Source: Escherichia phage slur16
Sequence record: NC_028248.1
DNA: 64,000 nt
Reading direction: 5' to 3' (one strand)
Within the stretch, counting starts at the first letter, position 1; each line of letters opens with the position of its first letter. The position numbers and the translations under genes were made by a program. Of this stretch, positions 4,924-13,269 are shown piece after piece. Under the pieces are notes generated by a model that worked only from the letters and a program-made list of their open reading frames with translations, was not told where the DNA came from and made no database searches.

Positions 4924-6108
4924 TCAAGCTTTAGCCAAAATGGCGCTAAACTCTTCACCAAACTCTTTTACAATCTTCATCAGGTTTGGGTATGCTTTAA
5001 TCAGCTGAGCAACAATCTTGTCACGCCCTTTACCGATAAGCAAGGCATTTCCTAAGGCATTAGGTTTCATCATCGCCATAAAGACTGAGAATACAAAATC
5101 TCGGTTCTCGTCCTTGAAATTTTCCCAAAGGAAATCGAGGAAGTTTGCCACACAGCTAACAAGATCTTCGTCGGAGATACTTGCATTTTCCATCATATTA
5201 CGAATAGCGATACAACCTTCAGACCCAAGAATCCACAAGATGTCTGGCTGTTTAGGACCTATGTATTCTTTGCAACCCCCTGCCATAATCCGACCGATTT
5301 CCGGTAAGTTGCGTTTCTTGGTGTGGTAGGTCCAGATCTCTACCGCTGCAGTGTGACCAATAGCACCTTGCAGAAGAACACGGGCCATAGCGTCAGAAAT
5401 AATACCGCTGTCAAAATCGTGCAAGATGTCAGATGCAGCAACCCAAGATCGCGGTGTGGCAAAAGATGGACAATTAATCTCAGCCATAGCCTCATAATTA
5501 TCGATAGCTGATGGAACTCTTTTCAGATACCCAATTACAGAGGAGTGCACCCCATTGAGGAATGCGTAGTCCTCAATAAACACCTCTGCATTGCTTGTAA
5601 CCTCTACAATGATAAAGCGGTTAGCCAGAGGAGCTTCGAGCGCCGAAAGAACAGCACCATCTGTAGAACGGTTACCCGCAGCCACAAAAACAGAGCCTTT
5701 AGGGAATGCATAGGTGCCGCACTTGTGGTCGAGCATAATCTGCATTGCAACCTTTTGCAGATAGTTATCTGCATGAGTAAGCTCATCCAGAAAGATAATT
5801 CCACCCCAGTTCGGATCTGCAGGCCAAAATTCTGGAATTGCAAACACTGTACGTGTAGTTCCATCAGCTTCTACAGGGATAGGTAGCCCAGATAAGTCGG
5901 CAGGATCTTTATCTGACAGCCGCACGTCAACCAGGTTGTCATCTCGCTCACCGAACATATTATCGGCGATCTGCTTCATCACCTGGCTCTTTCCCACGCC
6001 CATTGGTCCTAAAATCAGGACAGATCGGTTATGACGCTGGGCAAACTGAATGATAGCTGGCAACTCACGGACAGTGATTTGACCACTTTCAAATACGTTT
6101 CTTGACAT
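4924..6108 (-). CDS. AAA+ ATPase, MoxR/CobS-like
   Basis: Walker A LILGPMGVGKSQ, Walker B IIFLDELTHA, downstream sensor region VFVAAGNRS; size (~394 aa) typical of MoxR/CobS (AAA_5) proteins. Confidence 0.7.
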   Translation of the reverse strand: MSRNVFESGQITVRELPAIIQFAQRHNRSVLILGPMGVGKSQVMKQIADNMFGERDDNLVDVRLSDKDPADLSGLPIPVEADGTTRTVFAIPEFWPADPNWGGIIFLDELTHADNYLQKVAMQIMLDHKCGTYAFPKGSVFVAAGNRSTDGAVLSALEAPLANRFIIVEVTSNAEVFIEDYAFLNGVHSSVIGYLKRVPSAIDNYEAMAEINCPSFATPRSWVAASDILHDFDSGIISDAMARVLLQGAIGHTAAVEIWTYHTKKRNLPEIGRIMAGGCKEYIGPKQPDILWILGSEGCIAIRNMMENASISDEDLVSCVANFLDFLWENFKDENRDFVFSVFMAMMKPNALGNALLIGKGRDKIVAQLIKAYPNLMKIVKEFGEEFSAILAKA

Positions 6109-8673: not shown

Positions 8674-8683
8674 CACGTTTTTG

Positions 8684-9724
8684 ATGTTGACATCTGTTGA
8701 GACAATTGATACGATTTCTTCACTTACAGAGCACGAGAGACGACTCATGAATCTTGAAAAATATTATACACCAGAAGAGTTAGAGCGCTTGCTCAAAAAA
8801 TATAGACGCAAACAGAATAACGCACGGAAACGAGATATAGAGTTCGACCTGTCATGGGAAGAATACCTCCTATTTGGTAAAAAACTTTTAGGGGAGGGGG
8901 TATGCGACTACACCCTTATACCTTTCGACATGCACACAGATGAAAACGGACTGGGAAATCCTTTCTACCCATCTCTGGAGCGGATAGATGATGAAGGTCC
9001 TTACGCAATTGATAATTGTTGTGTGGTAGGGTTGAGGTGCAATGCTCTGAAAGACTGTCTGGTAGATAAAAAGACTGCAATCCTGATTAAAGACAAAACT
9101 GATCGAAAAATTGTCCAGCAGATGATGCTCCACCTGAGCGAAGAGCGTATGGAGAAATTGAAAGGTGATTATACTTTTGAAGATTTCATCTTGCAATACG
9201 GGACAGAAGAAGATAAACTAGCACTATTTGACGAAGAGGAGGAAGATATGTCACCAATGCAGGACTTTAAAAATTTCATGGCTGATCGTGCAGCCAACAA
9301 ACACATTTCAGACATCGTAAACGAGACTGTGGCAGAAGAAATTGAAGAACAGAACTCTGAAGAGGAAAAAGATCCTCAGGAGGTCGAAGAGGAGATTGCA
9401 GAAGAAGTTCCTGCACTGCCTGATGATGTTGAGATTGCTAAGGCTTACACTTTCTATTGTCAAACGTTCTACGATGCAGGTATGAAAGTTGATCTGTCGT
9501 TCAGCCAATTTAAGAGTTCGTATATTCGCAAATGCTGTGCTTTAACTGGTGAACGTCTCGGAGCTGGACTTAAACCACTGTTGGTGACCGACTGGAATAA
9601 AGGTTTCACTAAAGGAAACTTTATGGTAGTATCTCCAATTATGGAGAAAGCTATGACAGATCTTATGAAGACCACCCGCATGACAATGACCGAGTTGGCA
9701 GGTATTTTCAAACACGTTAAATAA
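8684..9724 (+). CDS. hypothetical protein with acidic region
   Basis: ORF 8681..9724 (track start is TTG; first ATG at 8684; alternative start at 8747 downstream of the candidate promoter). Contains a Glu-rich stretch. Confidence 0.5.
   Translation: MLTSVETIDTISSLTEHERRLMNLEKYYTPEELERLLKKYRRKQNNARKRDIEFDLSWEEYLLFGKKLLGEGVCDYTLIPFDMHTDENGLGNPFYPSLERIDDEGPYAIDNCCVVGLRCNALKDCLVDKKTAILIKDKTDRKIVQQMMLHLSEERMEKLKGDYTFEDFILQYGTEEDKLALFDEEEEDMSPMQDFKNFMADRAANKHISDIVNETVAEEIEEQNSEEEKDPQEVEEEIAEEVPALPDDVEIAKAYTFYCQTFYDAGMKVDLSFSQFKSSYIRKCCALTGERLGAGLKPLLVTDWNKGFTKGNFMVVSPIMEKAMTDLMKTTRMTMTELAGIFKHVK
8687..8715 (+). promoter_or_regulatory. sigma70-like promoter candidate for the rightward block
   Basis: -35 TTGACA (8687-8692), 17-nt spacer, -10 TACGAT (8710-8715). 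It lies inside the called N-terminus of the next ORF, so the true start may be the ATG at 8747. Confidence 0.35.
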
Positions 9725-9736
9725 TGACAGGGGCCA

Positions 9737-11218
9737 ATGGCCCCTTCTGGAGTTTTAATGGATAGCAGAAGTTCAGAAATCATTGCCTCACAGAAAGATG
9801 ATGCCCTGAGAATGTTGCAGGCTGCACGTATGTATCTCCTTGAAAAGCTGCCGTTTTATGGCACACTGCTGTCAGGGTTGCAGTTCGTAGAAAACCACAC
9901 ATGGTGCTCCACCATGGCAACCGACCATAAACGCATTTATTACAGCCCTGAGTTCATTATGGGATTGGCTGATGAACGCAAGGCTATTCTTAAGGCTTCT
10001 CTAACTGACGAGCAGTTTGAGATGGCTGAAGTTTTCTATTCCCCAAAATCTGTGAAAGAGGTGGCCTTCCTTCTGTCACATGAGGTGGGGCATATTATCT
10101 GTGATCACCTGGTCCGTGGTAAAAGCTTTGAGCCGGAACTGTTCAATATTGCTTGTGATCACGTTATCAACACAGGTCTTGTGGTTGACTTTAGCAAGCC
10201 TCCTTGTGTTTTCTTCCCGAAGGGGAAAAGCACTACGTTCGTGAAAGGCAAGCCTTTTGGCTTCTTAGCTAACTGCTACTGCGACATGAAGTTTCATGGA
10301 TGGATTGCTGAGAACGTCTATGCAGTTCTTGATAAGCAAAGAGATCAGAATAACGGTAAAAGTAAGAGCGGTAAAGGTGAGAACTCTCAAGGAGATAAGC
10401 GACAAACCGATGATCACATGAGTGGGAACGGTGGCACCAGTGATGATCTTGGAAAGGCTATGGGGTATGATCAGCCACAACCTGTAATCAGCCAATCTGA
10501 TAAAGATCAGGCCATGCAGGACTCTGGCGATATGCTGGAGGCAGCAATGCAAGCGTCCGGAGGTCGTTGCCCTGAGGCGGTTCGTGAGTTTGTCAAGAAT
10601 AGAGGTAAGCCTGTAATCAATTATATAGACATCATCAAGCAGCGTATGTTGTCTAAAAGAAAGGCCGAACTGACCTACAGAAAACCTGGTCGCCGATCTG
10701 GGTCTTTGACCAGCACAATGCGAAAAGTCGGAGCTATAAACAAGAACCAGCACGTTATTGTTCCTGGTCGTAATCCGGAAAACACTATAGATATTGTGGT
10801 GGCTTTAGACGTTTCTGGCTCGATCTCTCAAAGAACTTTAAAGAAAATGTTCAATGAAATCACCGGATTGTGCAATCTGTATAAAGAATTTAAGGTTACA
10901 ATGTTCTGTTGGTCAACTGAGGTTGGAGAGGTTAAAGTATACACTCGCGGCAACATAGACGAAATGATCAACTATGAGGTCCACTCAACATGGGGAACAA
11001 CAGCTGCTTGCGTGTTCGAGTATCTGGATGCCAACATACCAAATGCAAAAGATGTCATCGTCCTGACCGACCTATACTTTGAGCATAACTTTGAACAAAA
11101 GGCTGTTGACAACAAGTGGAAAAAGTACGATACTTTATGGGTTCTAACCGAAGGGTATAATAAAAATTATATCCCTAGCTTTGGTAAAACTGTGGAATTA
11201 ATCGAGTACGCTAAGTAA
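9737..11218 (+). CDS. VWA-domain protein with N-terminal HExxH metallopeptidase-like motif
   Basis: HEVGHIICDH (HExxH) in the N-terminal half; VALDVSGS (DxSGS MIDAS motif) in the C-terminal half. Alternative in-frame start at 9758 with GGAG RBS. Confidence 0.65.
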   Translation: MAPSGVLMDSRSSEIIASQKDDALRMLQAARMYLLEKLPFYGTLLSGLQFVENHTWCSTMATDHKRIYYSPEFIMGLADERKAILKASLTDEQFEMAEVFYSPKSVKEVAFLLSHEVGHIICDHLVRGKSFEPELFNIACDHVINTGLVVDFSKPPCVFFPKGKSTTFVKGKPFGFLANCYCDMKFHGWIAENVYAVLDKQRDQNNGKSKSGKGENSQGDKRQTDDHMSGNGGTSDDLGKAMGYDQPQPVISQSDKDQAMQDSGDMLEAAMQASGGRCPEAVREFVKNRGKPVINYIDIIKQRMLSKRKAELTYRKPGRRSGSLTSTMRKVGAINKNQHVIVPGRNPENTIDIVVALDVSGSISQRTLKKMFNEITGLCNLYKEFKVTMFCWSTEVGEVKVYTRGNIDEMINYEVHSTWGTTAACVFEYLDANIPNAKDVIVLTDLYFEHNFEQKAVDNKWKKYDTLWVLTEGYNKNYIPSFGKTVELIEYAK

Positions 11219-11224
11219 GAGAGG

Positions 11225-11491
11225 ATGTTATTTATGGCAACAGAGGTAGTAATTAAAGCTGAACGCCCAGTTAAAAAAGCTATCAACACGTTCCCTGTGG
11301 GAACCATTGTGAGCATGATCACAGAGTCAGGTCGTGTATCTACGCTGCTGATTGTGAAATCTGCATGTTCTTCTTGTGTGTGGGCTTACGATCTGGACGA
11401 GAAAGAACTAAAAGATTTTGTTGGGGAGCTGAAAGCAACCGAGCTCGATGCTCGTATCGAAGTATTTGGTGAAACTATGGAGGAAGAGTAA
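11225..11491 (+). CDS. small hypothetical protein, paralog 1 of a tandem trio
   Basis: 88 aa; shares an F-x-x-G-x-[IV]-V ... C pattern with the next two ORFs. Confidence 0.45.
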   Translation: MLFMATEVVIKAERPVKKAINTFPVGTIVSMITESGRVSTLLIVKSACSSCVWAYDLDEKELKDFVGELKATELDARIEVFGETMEEE

Positions 11492-11754
11492 TGACCACGA
11501 AAATCACTATTGCAGAACCGAAAGCTAACACTCAACCCATCGAAAAGTTTAAATGCGGTGAGGTGGTAACATTTACGCCAGATAATGAAGATGCTAAGAT
11601 TTTCGCCATGGTCACAGCTGAGTGGATGTGTGACAACACCACACAGGTTCTGCGTTTTGACACCTACCTTACAGATGAAATCAGGAACGATAAGATCGTG
11701 ACTGGTGTAGATACTGAAATTATTTTCTACAAGAGCTTTTTAGAGGGTTTCTAA
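11491..11754 (+). CDS. small hypothetical protein, paralog 2
   Basis: 87 aa; ATGA overlap with the upstream gene; KFKCGEVVTF motif. Confidence 0.45.
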   Translation: MTTKITIAEPKANTQPIEKFKCGEVVTFTPDNEDAKIFAMVTAEWMCDNTTQVLRFDTYLTDEIRNDKIVTGVDTEIIFYKSFLEGF

Positions 11755-11755
11755 T

Positions 11756-11992
11756 ATGGCGAAAATTCGTAAATTATCCAACAATCAGGTTGTTAAAGAT
11801 TTTGAACCCGGGGAGATTCTGTATGTTCGTGATGCAGATGACGAAGGAGAAGATCTTGTTATGCTGCTAGGACACGCTGCTGAGGACGGATGCATCCAGG
11901 CTGTTTTTCTTGAAACAGCTATGGTGCACTGGATAGAGCTGGACATGAAAGCACGAAAACCTAAAGCAGAAATCCTGATTTACGAAGATTAA
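11756..11992 (+). CDS. small hypothetical protein, paralog 3
   Basis: 78 aa; DFEPGEILYV motif. Confidence 0.45.
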   Translation: MAKIRKLSNNQVVKDFEPGEILYVRDADDEGEDLVMLLGHAAEDGCIQAVFLETAMVHWIELDMKARKPKAEILIYED

Positions 11993-12008: not shown

Positions 12009-12458
12009 GTGTTGAGCAAACGTGAATGCGACAGCATTAGCCTGAATTCTTATAAGAAACAATGGTTTGGGGTAGAAGTTTGCCGACTGCGGCTAGGCTC
12101 CTACCTGAACTTCGTTTATTACGAGAGCGACAGTCGTATCGTTTCTTATGAAGTGTTCTACACTAAGAACACATTCGAACTGCGCCGTAAAGTAGAGGGA
12201 GGGAGAACTACCACCCAGAATAATTGGGAAACTATTCTGCCTCCAGATGTTATAGGAAGTCCCCTGAATGTATCTGAAGATGAAAATCTTATGGTTCATG
12301 CTATGATGGGACTTGACAGCTTAGAGCTGGCGATCTATGATATGTCCATCGAAGCAGTTAAGCTGGACTACATCGAAAACACTTTAGAGGAAGGTATCAA
12401 GAAGTTTCTCAGTGAGAAATTAAAAGATCACTTTCATAAGGAGCTATACCTGTTATGA
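12009..12458 (+). CDS. hypothetical protein
   Basis: 149-aa ORF, GTG start with AGGAGAG RBS. Confidence 0.4.
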   Translation: MLSKRECDSISLNSYKKQWFGVEVCRLRLGSYLNFVYYESDSRIVSYEVFYTKNTFELRRKVEGGRTTTQNNWETILPPDVIGSPLNVSEDENLMVHAMMGLDSLELAIYDMSIEAVKLDYIENTLEEGIKKFLSEKLKDHFHKELYLL

Positions 12459-12700
12459 AGACCCGTAAAGAACGTAACAAAATTTTACCTGGGGCTCTCG
12501 AACACCTGATGAAGTGCAGATCTATTTGGCACTCTGCCAAGGAAGGGCAGAAGGTGGTTGTGGTTAGTGACAATACCAACCCGTTTGGAGATTATACCAC
12601 CATGATGGCCCCATATGTCCGTGATGGCGTTGTGGAAGTGGTCCCTTACAACGGTCTGCATGAACGTCACTTTGAAAGCACTTTGCTAGTGGAGCTATAG
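12455..12700 (+). CDS. hypothetical protein
   Basis: 81-aa ORF, 4-nt overlap with the upstream gene. Confidence 0.4.
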   Translation: MKTRKERNKILPGALEHLMKCRSIWHSAKEGQKVVVVSDNTNPFGDYTTMMAPYVRDGVVEVVPYNGLHERHFESTLLVEL

Positions 12701-12702
12701 TC

Positions 12703-13269
12703 ATGGCGGTCAATGTGGCTTACAACACAGGAAAGCTTGACAGAGACATTGGGTGTCTTGTCCTTTCAGATACAGAAGAGTATTGGGGTCATGGGTTGCT
12801 GTCAGACCCACACCCGAGCAACCTTGTATCAACAGTGCTATACCGCTACGACCCTGTGCCAACGGTACACGACAAAGACATTCACGACCTTCGGATCAAG
12901 TGTCTGGAAGATCTGCTGAACAATGGTTGCAACGATCTGCGGGTAGCCAAAGAGAAGCTTACAAACATTCACAAAGAGGAAGTGATGAGCACCATCAGTA
13001 AGAGATCAGTGCACAAAAAGATGATGCTGAACTTTGCAATGGGTATCTACATGGACGGGTATAAGGGGGGTGATCCGATTCTCAAGCTTCGCTGCCCAAC
13101 ACTGTGGGAAAGAGTGGTTGACAGTAAGGACGGCACTGCCCTGCTCGAACTCCACACCGCAGGTTGGATTTGGCGGTATGTAGACGGATACCCTCTGTGG
13201 GCATGTGGACCTGGGGAATTTGTTGACAGACCTAGCGCGGTAGTGGACTTGCTATTACAGTTTGAATAA
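12703..13269 (+). CDS. hypothetical protein
   Basis: 188-aa ORF. Confidence 0.45.
   Translation: MAVNVAYNTGKLDRDIGCLVLSDTEEYWGHGLLSDPHPSNLVSTVLYRYDPVPTVHDKDIHDLRIKCLEDLLNNGCNDLRVAKEKLTNIHKEEVMSTISKRSVHKKMMLNFAMGIYMDGYKGGDPILKLRCPTLWERVVDSKDGTALLELHTAGWIWRYVDGYPLWACGPGEFVDRPSAVVDLLLQFE

Follow-up and report, generated by a model that had tools for sequence, protein, structure and literature searches.

In the genome of Escherichia phage slur16 (NC_028248.1), three small genes that lie in tandem on the plus strand, here called A, B and C in their 5' to 3' order, encode proteins of about 80 residues each. Sequence comparison indicates that the three are paralogs, i.e., ancient tandem duplicates of one small gene, and with moderate confidence their products are taken to be acidic SH3/Tudor-like binders, which serve as accessory host-interaction factors and are confined to rV5-like phages. 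All positions are counted on the whole stretch of 64,000 nucleotides that was analysed, which is referred to as the window. Between 10500 and 13500 the window matches Escherichia phage slur12 (LN881735) at 100% identity and 115 further records at 90–99%, and the phage is, by its sequence, an rV5-like Vequintavirus.

Common origin of A, B and C

The pairwise identity among A, B and C is about 20%. BLASTP gives no match between A and B, an E value of 0.33 between A and C and an E value of 4e-5 between B and C, and the last of these matches is fragile in that it is absent for the near-identical orthologues of phage nimi. The three proteins have full-length matches to three different PHROGs (A to phrog_10698, E = 6e-48; B to phrog_12861, E = 9e-62; C to phrog_12046, E = 3e-54), which are function-unknown families that are kept separate from each other, as they are also among the pVOGs. 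From this it could be argued that the array consists of three unrelated, beta-rich small open reading frames (ORFs), which are alike by composition and chance. Such an explanation is highly improbable and is largely refuted already by the order dependence of the similarity, as follows.

When Smith-Waterman scores are compared with those of 2000 shuffles, z is 6.9 for B and C and 3.5 for A and B. When an enlarged, 12-sequence profile of A is aligned by hhalign with B, the probability is 92% (P = 7e-7), and when it is aligned with C, the probability is 67% (P = 5e-5), with 68 of the 78 residues aligned. The corresponding scores, 38.2 for A and B and 28.6 for A and C, lie far above those of column-shuffled decoys (10.4 ± 2.3 and 10.0 ± 2.0, respectively), none of which reaches the observed value in either case (0/60), and far above the scores of 13–16 that are obtained with reversed alignments. 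Three unrelated small-protein families of the same operon, used as controls, give hhalign P values between 0.13 and 0.48. When the hidden Markov models (HMMs) of the families are run against the 545 six-frame ORFs of the window, the best match other than self is always a member of the trio (A finds B with E = 0.001, B finds C and then A, and C finds B), and B also has a weak full-length match to the PHROG of A (E = 0.08). The families are, furthermore, bridged by a protein from a relative, P0040, which is related in plain BLASTP to A (2e-9), to B (5e-4) and to C (1e-3).

In a single co-linear register, F20 and G23 are invariant in all 17 aligned sequences from the three families, so that the core pattern which the initial annotation had seen in the trio is real, in the form F-x-x-G-x-(I/V)-(V/L). 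In this register the hydropathy profiles of the families correlate with r values of 0.45–0.53, which should be compared with values never above 0.25 for 77–86 circular shifts. Since shuffles, HMM ranks, hhalign scores with their decoys, the bridge through P0040 and the F20/G23 register all agree, A, B and C are judged to be paralogs, and chance resemblance is effectively excluded. The equal length and register of the three genes, their adjacency, and the single-copy state of the same site in a relative also speak against separate origins.

The initial annotation had further described a conserved, Cys-containing segment, and this part of the pattern does not hold. Cys occurs at two alignment columns in A, at the first of these only in B and at the second only in C, and since it is missing from several A-family members and from one C variant, it does not characterise the family. 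For the same reason, the idea that Cys forms a metal or redox site was rejected.

The family appears, from these searches, to be restricted to rV5-like phages. With tblastn, the matches of A, B and C are each confined to the same 116 Vequintavirus records, in 115 of which B is at least 95% identical. Searches of Pfam, NCBIfam and PADLOC with the three proteins gave no family match. When the A profile is run against 1.84 billion cluster representatives there are five matches, four of which are A-type subfamilies, and through this exhaustive search the A family gained more divergent members. The fifth match, the repeat protein P0039, was rejected as a family member: its E value of 1e-4 is accumulated across three repeats and covers part of the profile only, and it was judged to be a partial match of beta-meander type. 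Word-indexed homologue searches returned near-identical sequences only, and IMG/VR contributed two loci only.

Gene boundaries, copy number and exchange at the locus

The three consecutive ORFs of 88, 87 and 78 residues that were originally called on the plus strand, at 11225–11491, 11491–11754 and 11756–11992, are all present. In the case of A the frame stands and the start probably does not. The ATG at 11225 begins 0 nucleotides from the Shine-Dalgarno sequence AAGAGAGG, while the ATG at 11234 has a spacing of 9 nucleotides and is the start annotated for A in most relatives; from this follows that A most likely starts at 11234, as a protein of 85 residues that begins with MATEVV. At the A/B junction (TAATG), the A stop codon TAA at 11489–11491 shares one base with the ATG of B at 11491, and at the B/C junction (TAA-T-ATG) one nucleotide separates the B stop codon at 11752–11754 from the ATG of C at 11756. 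A GAGG-type Shine-Dalgarno sequence precedes each of the three starts. The arrangement is thus consistent with the translational coupling that had been proposed. The features are collected in the table, where the genes of rV5 (ORF14–16) and of Bas54, which is the BASEL phage MaxBurger, are assigned to A, B and C by position.

Coordinates of the array and of its surroundings in the window
Feature	Position	Strand	Remarks
Srd-like 'anti-sigma factor' gene	8681..9724	+	first gene of the operon; orthologue of rV5 gp11; PHROG matches to Srd / decoy-of-sigma70 families
DUF2201 zincin-like metallopeptidase + VWA protein gene	9737..11218	+	upstream array boundary; orthologue of bas54_0055; Pfam PF13203 3e-28, PF09967 4e-11
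Shine-Dalgarno sequence AAGAGAGG	11217..11224	+	serves A start 11234; read directly from sequence
Gene A	11234..11491	+	85 aa; 88-aa form begins 11225; phrog_10698; orthologue of rV5 ORF14, bas54_0054
A-body swappable cassette	11249..11478	+	nucleotide identity breakpoints between genome types
Gene B	11491..11754	+	87 aa; phrog_12861; orthologue of rV5 ORF15, bas54_0053
Gene C	11756..11992	+	78 aa; phrog_12046; orthologue of rV5 ORF16, bas54_0052
149-aa gene	12009..12458	+	downstream array boundary; orthologue of bas54_0051

The gene upstream of the array, DUF2201, is conserved across Vequintavirinae, N4-like and jumbo phages. The site downstream of it differs among relatives in the number of family members. 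There are none in Seunavirus, Mydovirus, Henunavirus, Certrevirus and a phage provisionally placed with the phi92-like group: in the six genomes examined from these five Vequintavirinae lineages the next annotated gene follows directly after DUF2201, and no A-, B- or C-like gene lies between the two. In three of these six genomes (Seunavirus-like and Mydovirus phages) this next gene is an orthologue of the 149-aa gene (BLASTP 5e-11 to 1e-5), and in the other three it has no BLASTP match to the 149-aa gene and corresponds to it by position alone. There is one family member, the bridging protein P0040, on a 123-kb metagenomic contig (L011) from a divergent rV5-like phage, where the flanking proteins are 47–66% identical to those of the window and the 149-aa gene is 47% identical. 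Among the 116 Vequintavirus records, finally, there are three genes (A, B and C) in 72 and four (A1, A2, B and C) in 44, where A1 and A2 each share about 40% identity with A as well as between themselves. The copy number thus runs 0, 1, 3, 4, every time between DUF2201 and the 149-aa gene, and the local multiplication of one small gene that had been proposed for the locus is borne out both by this series and by the pairwise and profile alignments.

The difference between three and four genes is confined to a short segment. When slur12-type and nimi-type genomes are aligned, their identity is 94–97% up to 11248, which is in codon 5 of A, and 88–95% from 11479, which is 12 nucleotides before B; inside 11249–11478 the two genome types do not match at the nucleotide level. 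Because identity stops and resumes at these positions, the body of A forms a cassette with sharp borders, and in the 44 four-gene records two tandem A-type genes take its place. Both types are found within one species, Vequintavirus murica. In another relative, L020, an A-type gene with 62% identity to A lies alone at another locus, with neither B nor C.

The last two genes of the array show a different pattern. In a divergent relative (L021), B is 96.6% and C 94.8% identical to the protein of the window, while the flanking proteins are 37–82% identical, so that no other genes of the region are as well conserved as B and C. For B and C in this relative dN is 0.02 and dS about 0.7, and the dS values of the flanks are mostly saturated. 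From these identities and dS values it follows that B and C have been exchanged between lineages after the flanks had diverged, and that their proteins have been held near constant. To judge from sequence, then, the first slot behaves as an exchangeable cassette and B-C as a conserved unit that has been transferred among diverged lineages.

The initial annotation had associated the triplication with diversifying selection, and this finds no support in the substitution pattern. Within the genus, with 4–11 genomes used per gene, the dN/dS values of A, B and C are 0.07, 0.03 and 0.11, in the same range as those of the neighbouring genes (0.04–0.10). These values identify A, B and C as real, constrained coding genes under strong purifying selection, and recent diversifying selection was rejected on this ground. 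When A varies, it does so by replacement of the whole cassette and not by point substitution.

Some further observations concern the same operon in relatives. On the contig with one family member there are two tandem paralogs, 26–29% identical, of the 188-aa gene that occupies 12703–13269 in the window (L011 5938–6531 and 6577–7128), and on account of this second case tandem duplication is recurrent in the operon. The same contig has a TnpB-like gene (OrfB_IS605 / Cas12f1-like_TNB, 1119–2258), absent from the window, just upstream of its anti-sigma-like gene. In L021 there is no called orthologue of the 81-aa gene of the window (12455–12700) between the 149-aa and 188-aa genes, where a 247-bp gap remains (5224–5471). 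In other genera, an ORF of about 86 residues lies just upstream of DUF2201 (L003 2168–2428, L004 2178–2435, L005 2197–2457 and L006 2187–2453); it has an F/I-x-V/I-G-D/E motif, and hhalign aligns it with A, B and C in the same register with P = 0.008–0.03, as compared with 0.13–0.48 for controls. These P values are too weak for it to be claimed as a displaced family member, and a very distant kinship with A, B and C is possible.

Predicted fold and function

When AlphaFold2 is run for A on an 11-sequence alignment of the A family, the resulting model is all-beta, with strands at 2–16, 25–29, 35–44, 48–53, 58–63 and 67–78 (pLDDT 84.3, pTM 0.70). It has a five-stranded, strongly bent antiparallel barrel core of about 50 residues, extended by long N- and C-terminal strands, and A is confidently predicted to be a small beta-barrel of the SH3/Tudor-like type. 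In this the model resembles the class of fold found in Tudor domains of SMN and PHF proteins, PWWP, KOW, ribosomal uL2, EF-P and the C-terminal domain of UvrD/PcrA. It differs from these domains in its long terminal strands, in that A, B and C have no Pfam family membership, and in that they are stand-alone acidic proteins rather than domains of larger ones. A conserved aromatic cage of Tudor type is unlikely, since F20 is the sole aromatic residue that is invariant across the three families. All members are acidic (pI 4.2–5.0, net charge −4 to −9) and have no hydrophobic segments, and there is no catalytic motif, metal site, signal peptide or membrane segment in A, B or C.

In structure searches with the model, Foldseek against the PDB matches these same kinds of domain and, in addition, WYL domains, none of them below E = 0.1, and in BFVD the significant matches are A-family proteins only. 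These are followed by many uncharacterised phage proteins of 70–90 residues, including N4 Gp21, which resemble A in size and predicted fold (TM 0.5–0.67). The DUF2201 gene is also present in N4-like phages, from which several of these proteins come. Their Foldseek E values are, however, only 2e-3 to 5e-2 and their identity to A is 6–21%, and because they are themselves of unknown function no mechanism is gained from the likeness.

The genes lie in a setting that makes an early, host-directed role plausible. In phage rV5, genes 11–26 are transcribed as one unit from bidirectional sigma70-type promoters, gp11 is an Srd-like anti-sigma factor, and genes 27–66 are the late genes (PMC3606486). Since A, B and C sit in this '11-26' unit, whose first gene is Srd-like, their early expression is plausible. 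In the window, within 8681–8753, a promoter-like site (TTGACA-17-TACGAT with an extended −10 TG, 8687–8715) lies inside the long, TTG-started ORF of the Srd-like gene, which favours the shorter start at about 8747 that is annotated in Bas54, Bas57 and Pr121LW. A scan for promoters and terminators from 7.5 to 16.5 kb found no enrichment over shuffles and none inside the array. The position of the genes in the 11–26 unit, away from the late genes, and their tolerance of insertions argue against a virion structural protein.

The company of an Srd-like gene in the operon may also be read more narrowly, so that the three proteins would be regulators which complement the Srd-like factor and which, like Tudor-like or KOW domains (UvrD/PcrA C-terminal domain, CarD/Mfd RID, NusG/Spt5 KOW), dock onto the machinery of transcription or translation. 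There is indeed a weak, non-significant sequence match to a KOW chain of Spt5 (2do3_A, E = 0.22). Such matches are, however, no better than those to dozens of other SH3-like barrels, Pfam has no match of A, B or C to KOW (PF00467) or CarD_CdnL_TRCF (PF02559) even at E <= 1, and the genes are non-essential. Docking of this kind would be a special case of host interaction in general, without separate support, and it is improbable.

The dispensability of the genes is known from a HIDEN-SEQ preprint, in which Bas54 was subjected to saturating transposon mutagenesis (10.1101/2025.11.20.689424). In K-12, the orthologues of A, B and C (bas54_0054, 0053 and 0052) are non-essential, with 17/17, 13/15 and 12/12 TA sites hit, respectively, so that all three are dispensable on the laboratory host. 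In competition on the clinical isolate CFE311, the log2 fold change is +0.46 for A (p = 0.33), +0.33 for B (p = 0.64) and −1.32 for C (p = 0.13, q = 0.68), as compared with −2.28 for the 149-aa gene (bas54_0051, q = 0.195), −2.20 for DUF2201 (bas54_0055, q = 0.009), −7.23 for a MoxR ATPase (bas54_0063, q reported as 0.00000, where values <1e-5 are rounded) and −5.48 for bas54_0140 (q reported as 0.00000); the last two genes were validated as required against a predicted defence system, DS-28 (10.1101/2025.11.20.689424). The CFE311 data refer to one strain and to single insertions, so that redundancy among paralogs could mask a phenotype. In Extended Data Table 8, the sheet Data S6, labelled 'resampling K-12 vs CFE303' for Bas54, is in fact the CFE311 run: its console line names the 311 files and its values are identical to those of S7. 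CFE311 is therefore the one informative non-laboratory host.

In the window, a MoxR-like AAA ATPase gene with a weak Pfam AAA_14 match (4924–6108, minus strand), by position the orthologue of bas54_0063, and the DUF2201-VWA gene on the plus strand border a divergent promoter region. The depletion of both on CFE311, with the validation of the former against DS-28, suggests a MoxR-VWA counter-defence pair.

These neighbours, both conditionally needed in CFE311, and the validation of MoxR against DS-28 raise the question of whether the array is itself directed against immunity, with each paralog neutralising a different immune system and the A cassette being exchanged to match the defences of local hosts. 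Consistent with this, the genes are small, acidic, restricted to the genus, accessory and non-essential in K-12, the A slot varies among phages of a single species while its cassette borders are exact, and an A-type gene occurs alone at another locus. Against it, insertions in A or B are not depleted in CFE311 and the effect of C is not significant, dN/dS is low, and B is near-invariant in 116 genomes, as genes in an arms race usually are not. Nor is there a match to any known anti-defence protein in Pfam, PHROGs, the PDB or BFVD, and an array of this kind is considered unlikely. Two further papers on Vequintavirinae and defence do not mention A, B or C.

In another reading, coupling would supply A, B and C in stoichiometric amounts for assembly into a hetero-oligomeric complex, possibly together with DUF2201-VWA and MoxR. 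Tandem paralogs often form hetero-oligomers, the stop and start codons at the junctions overlap or abut, B and C travel as one conserved module, and the long terminal beta-strands of the A model could pair between subunits. Against this, the replacement of A by one or two genes of about 40% identity is accompanied, among 11 genomes, by no visible matching change in the identity of B and C. Furthermore, L011 has a single copy and L020 an A-type gene with neither B nor C, and insertions in DUF2201 and MoxR are depleted in CFE311 but those in A and B are not. Assembly into one complex is accordingly thought rather doubtful.

The reading that is preferred, as accessory host-interaction factors, takes its support from co-transcription and coupling within an operon that opens with an Srd-like anti-sigma factor. 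According to this reading, each protein would be a soluble, acidic, single-domain protein of about 80 residues, working as a stoichiometric binder of another macromolecule, and each paralog would have a partner of its own. The genes are co-transcribed and, to judge from their junctions, coupled within a host-promoter-driven operon, opened by the Srd-like factor, and they are expendable on the laboratory host yet kept by selection in nature. That the proteins bind rather than catalyse, and that the target belongs to the host, we infer from the data above.

Several points weigh against this reading. The profile-profile comparison of B with C is by itself marginal (P = 0.007, and 1 of 60 decoys reaches the score). 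A B model built from an alignment of B and C only, independently of A, has a pLDDT of 39, so that the common fold which B and C would have with A is drawn from profile alignments and in-register hydropathy, that is, from comparisons that use an alignment optimised for similarity. In CFE311, insertions in A and B have no effect and those in C no significant one (10.1101/2025.11.20.689424). Strong purifying selection together with the lack of a laboratory phenotype also fits a role unrelated to the host, such as the fine-tuning of a phage process.

A more far-reaching version of host interaction can be formulated, in which the array is a modular locus for counter-defence or host range, derived from one SH3-like binder by duplication in tandem. 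The paralogs would then each inactivate a different host factor, A would be a hot-swappable specificity cassette that is exchanged by way of its conserved junctions, B-C would be a mobile module spreading among diverged rV5-like lineages, and redundancy would hide the phenotypes of single insertions. In this strong form the proposal is speculative and not likely to be correct.

Related systems and significance

Among tandem accessory paralogs, T4 modA/modB and the short-tail-fibre paralogs of Vequintavirus described in the BASEL paper are like A, B and C in their local duplication, deep divergence, purifying selection and variable copy number. The present genes differ from paralogs of the modA/modB type in that they have diverged to about 20% identity and are treated by databases as three unrelated families. 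The A slot, in turn, resembles exchangeable counter-defence cassettes, such as those with anti-CRISPR genes, in its conserved junctions and in the presence of distantly related small genes within one species. It differs from them in that the alternatives all belong to one family, and in that there is no conditional phenotype in CFE311, the one strain tested.

A number of public annotations in the region call for comment. In the rV5 record (DQ832317, L027 1–1228), DUF2201 is split into the overlapping ORF12 and ORF13, where the window has one ORF of 493 residues, and the split is probably due to a frameshift or an annotation artefact. In several public records the 149-aa gene bears the name 'tail protein' (phrog_6790), and the DUF2201 gene that of 'HNH endonuclease' (phrog_1314). 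Both names look wrong: bas54_0051, the orthologue of the former, is a non-essential gene of the accessory operon (30/33 TA sites), and Pfam finds a metallopeptidase and VWA in the latter. Sixteen 'Campylobacter phage' records (MG0656xx, e.g., H8, H9 and H18–H20) are about 97% identical to E. coli rV5-like phages in the region; their host is given as C. jejuni in 15 cases and as 'Campylobacter' alone in one, and these host labels are probably wrong.

In more than 100 genomes of E. coli phages that are candidates for therapy, the annotation lists A, B and C as hypothetical proteins that have nothing to do with each other. Small accessory genes that are duplicated in tandem and have a very common fold are already familiar in phages, and the findings would surprise a specialist only if a target related to defence or host takeover came to light. 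The analysis contributes a modelled fold for A, the copy-number series from zero through one and three to four, and the precisely bounded, swappable slot. The merging of three orphan families reduces phage dark matter by a small yet tangible amount, and the A cassette and the unusually conserved B-C pair are targets for deletion and interaction work in Bas54, which is of the three-gene type, and in Bas57, which is of the four-gene type, for both of which genetic tools exist. If it is true that the A cassette or the B-C pair sets host- or defence-specific infectivity, the significance of the array would rise.

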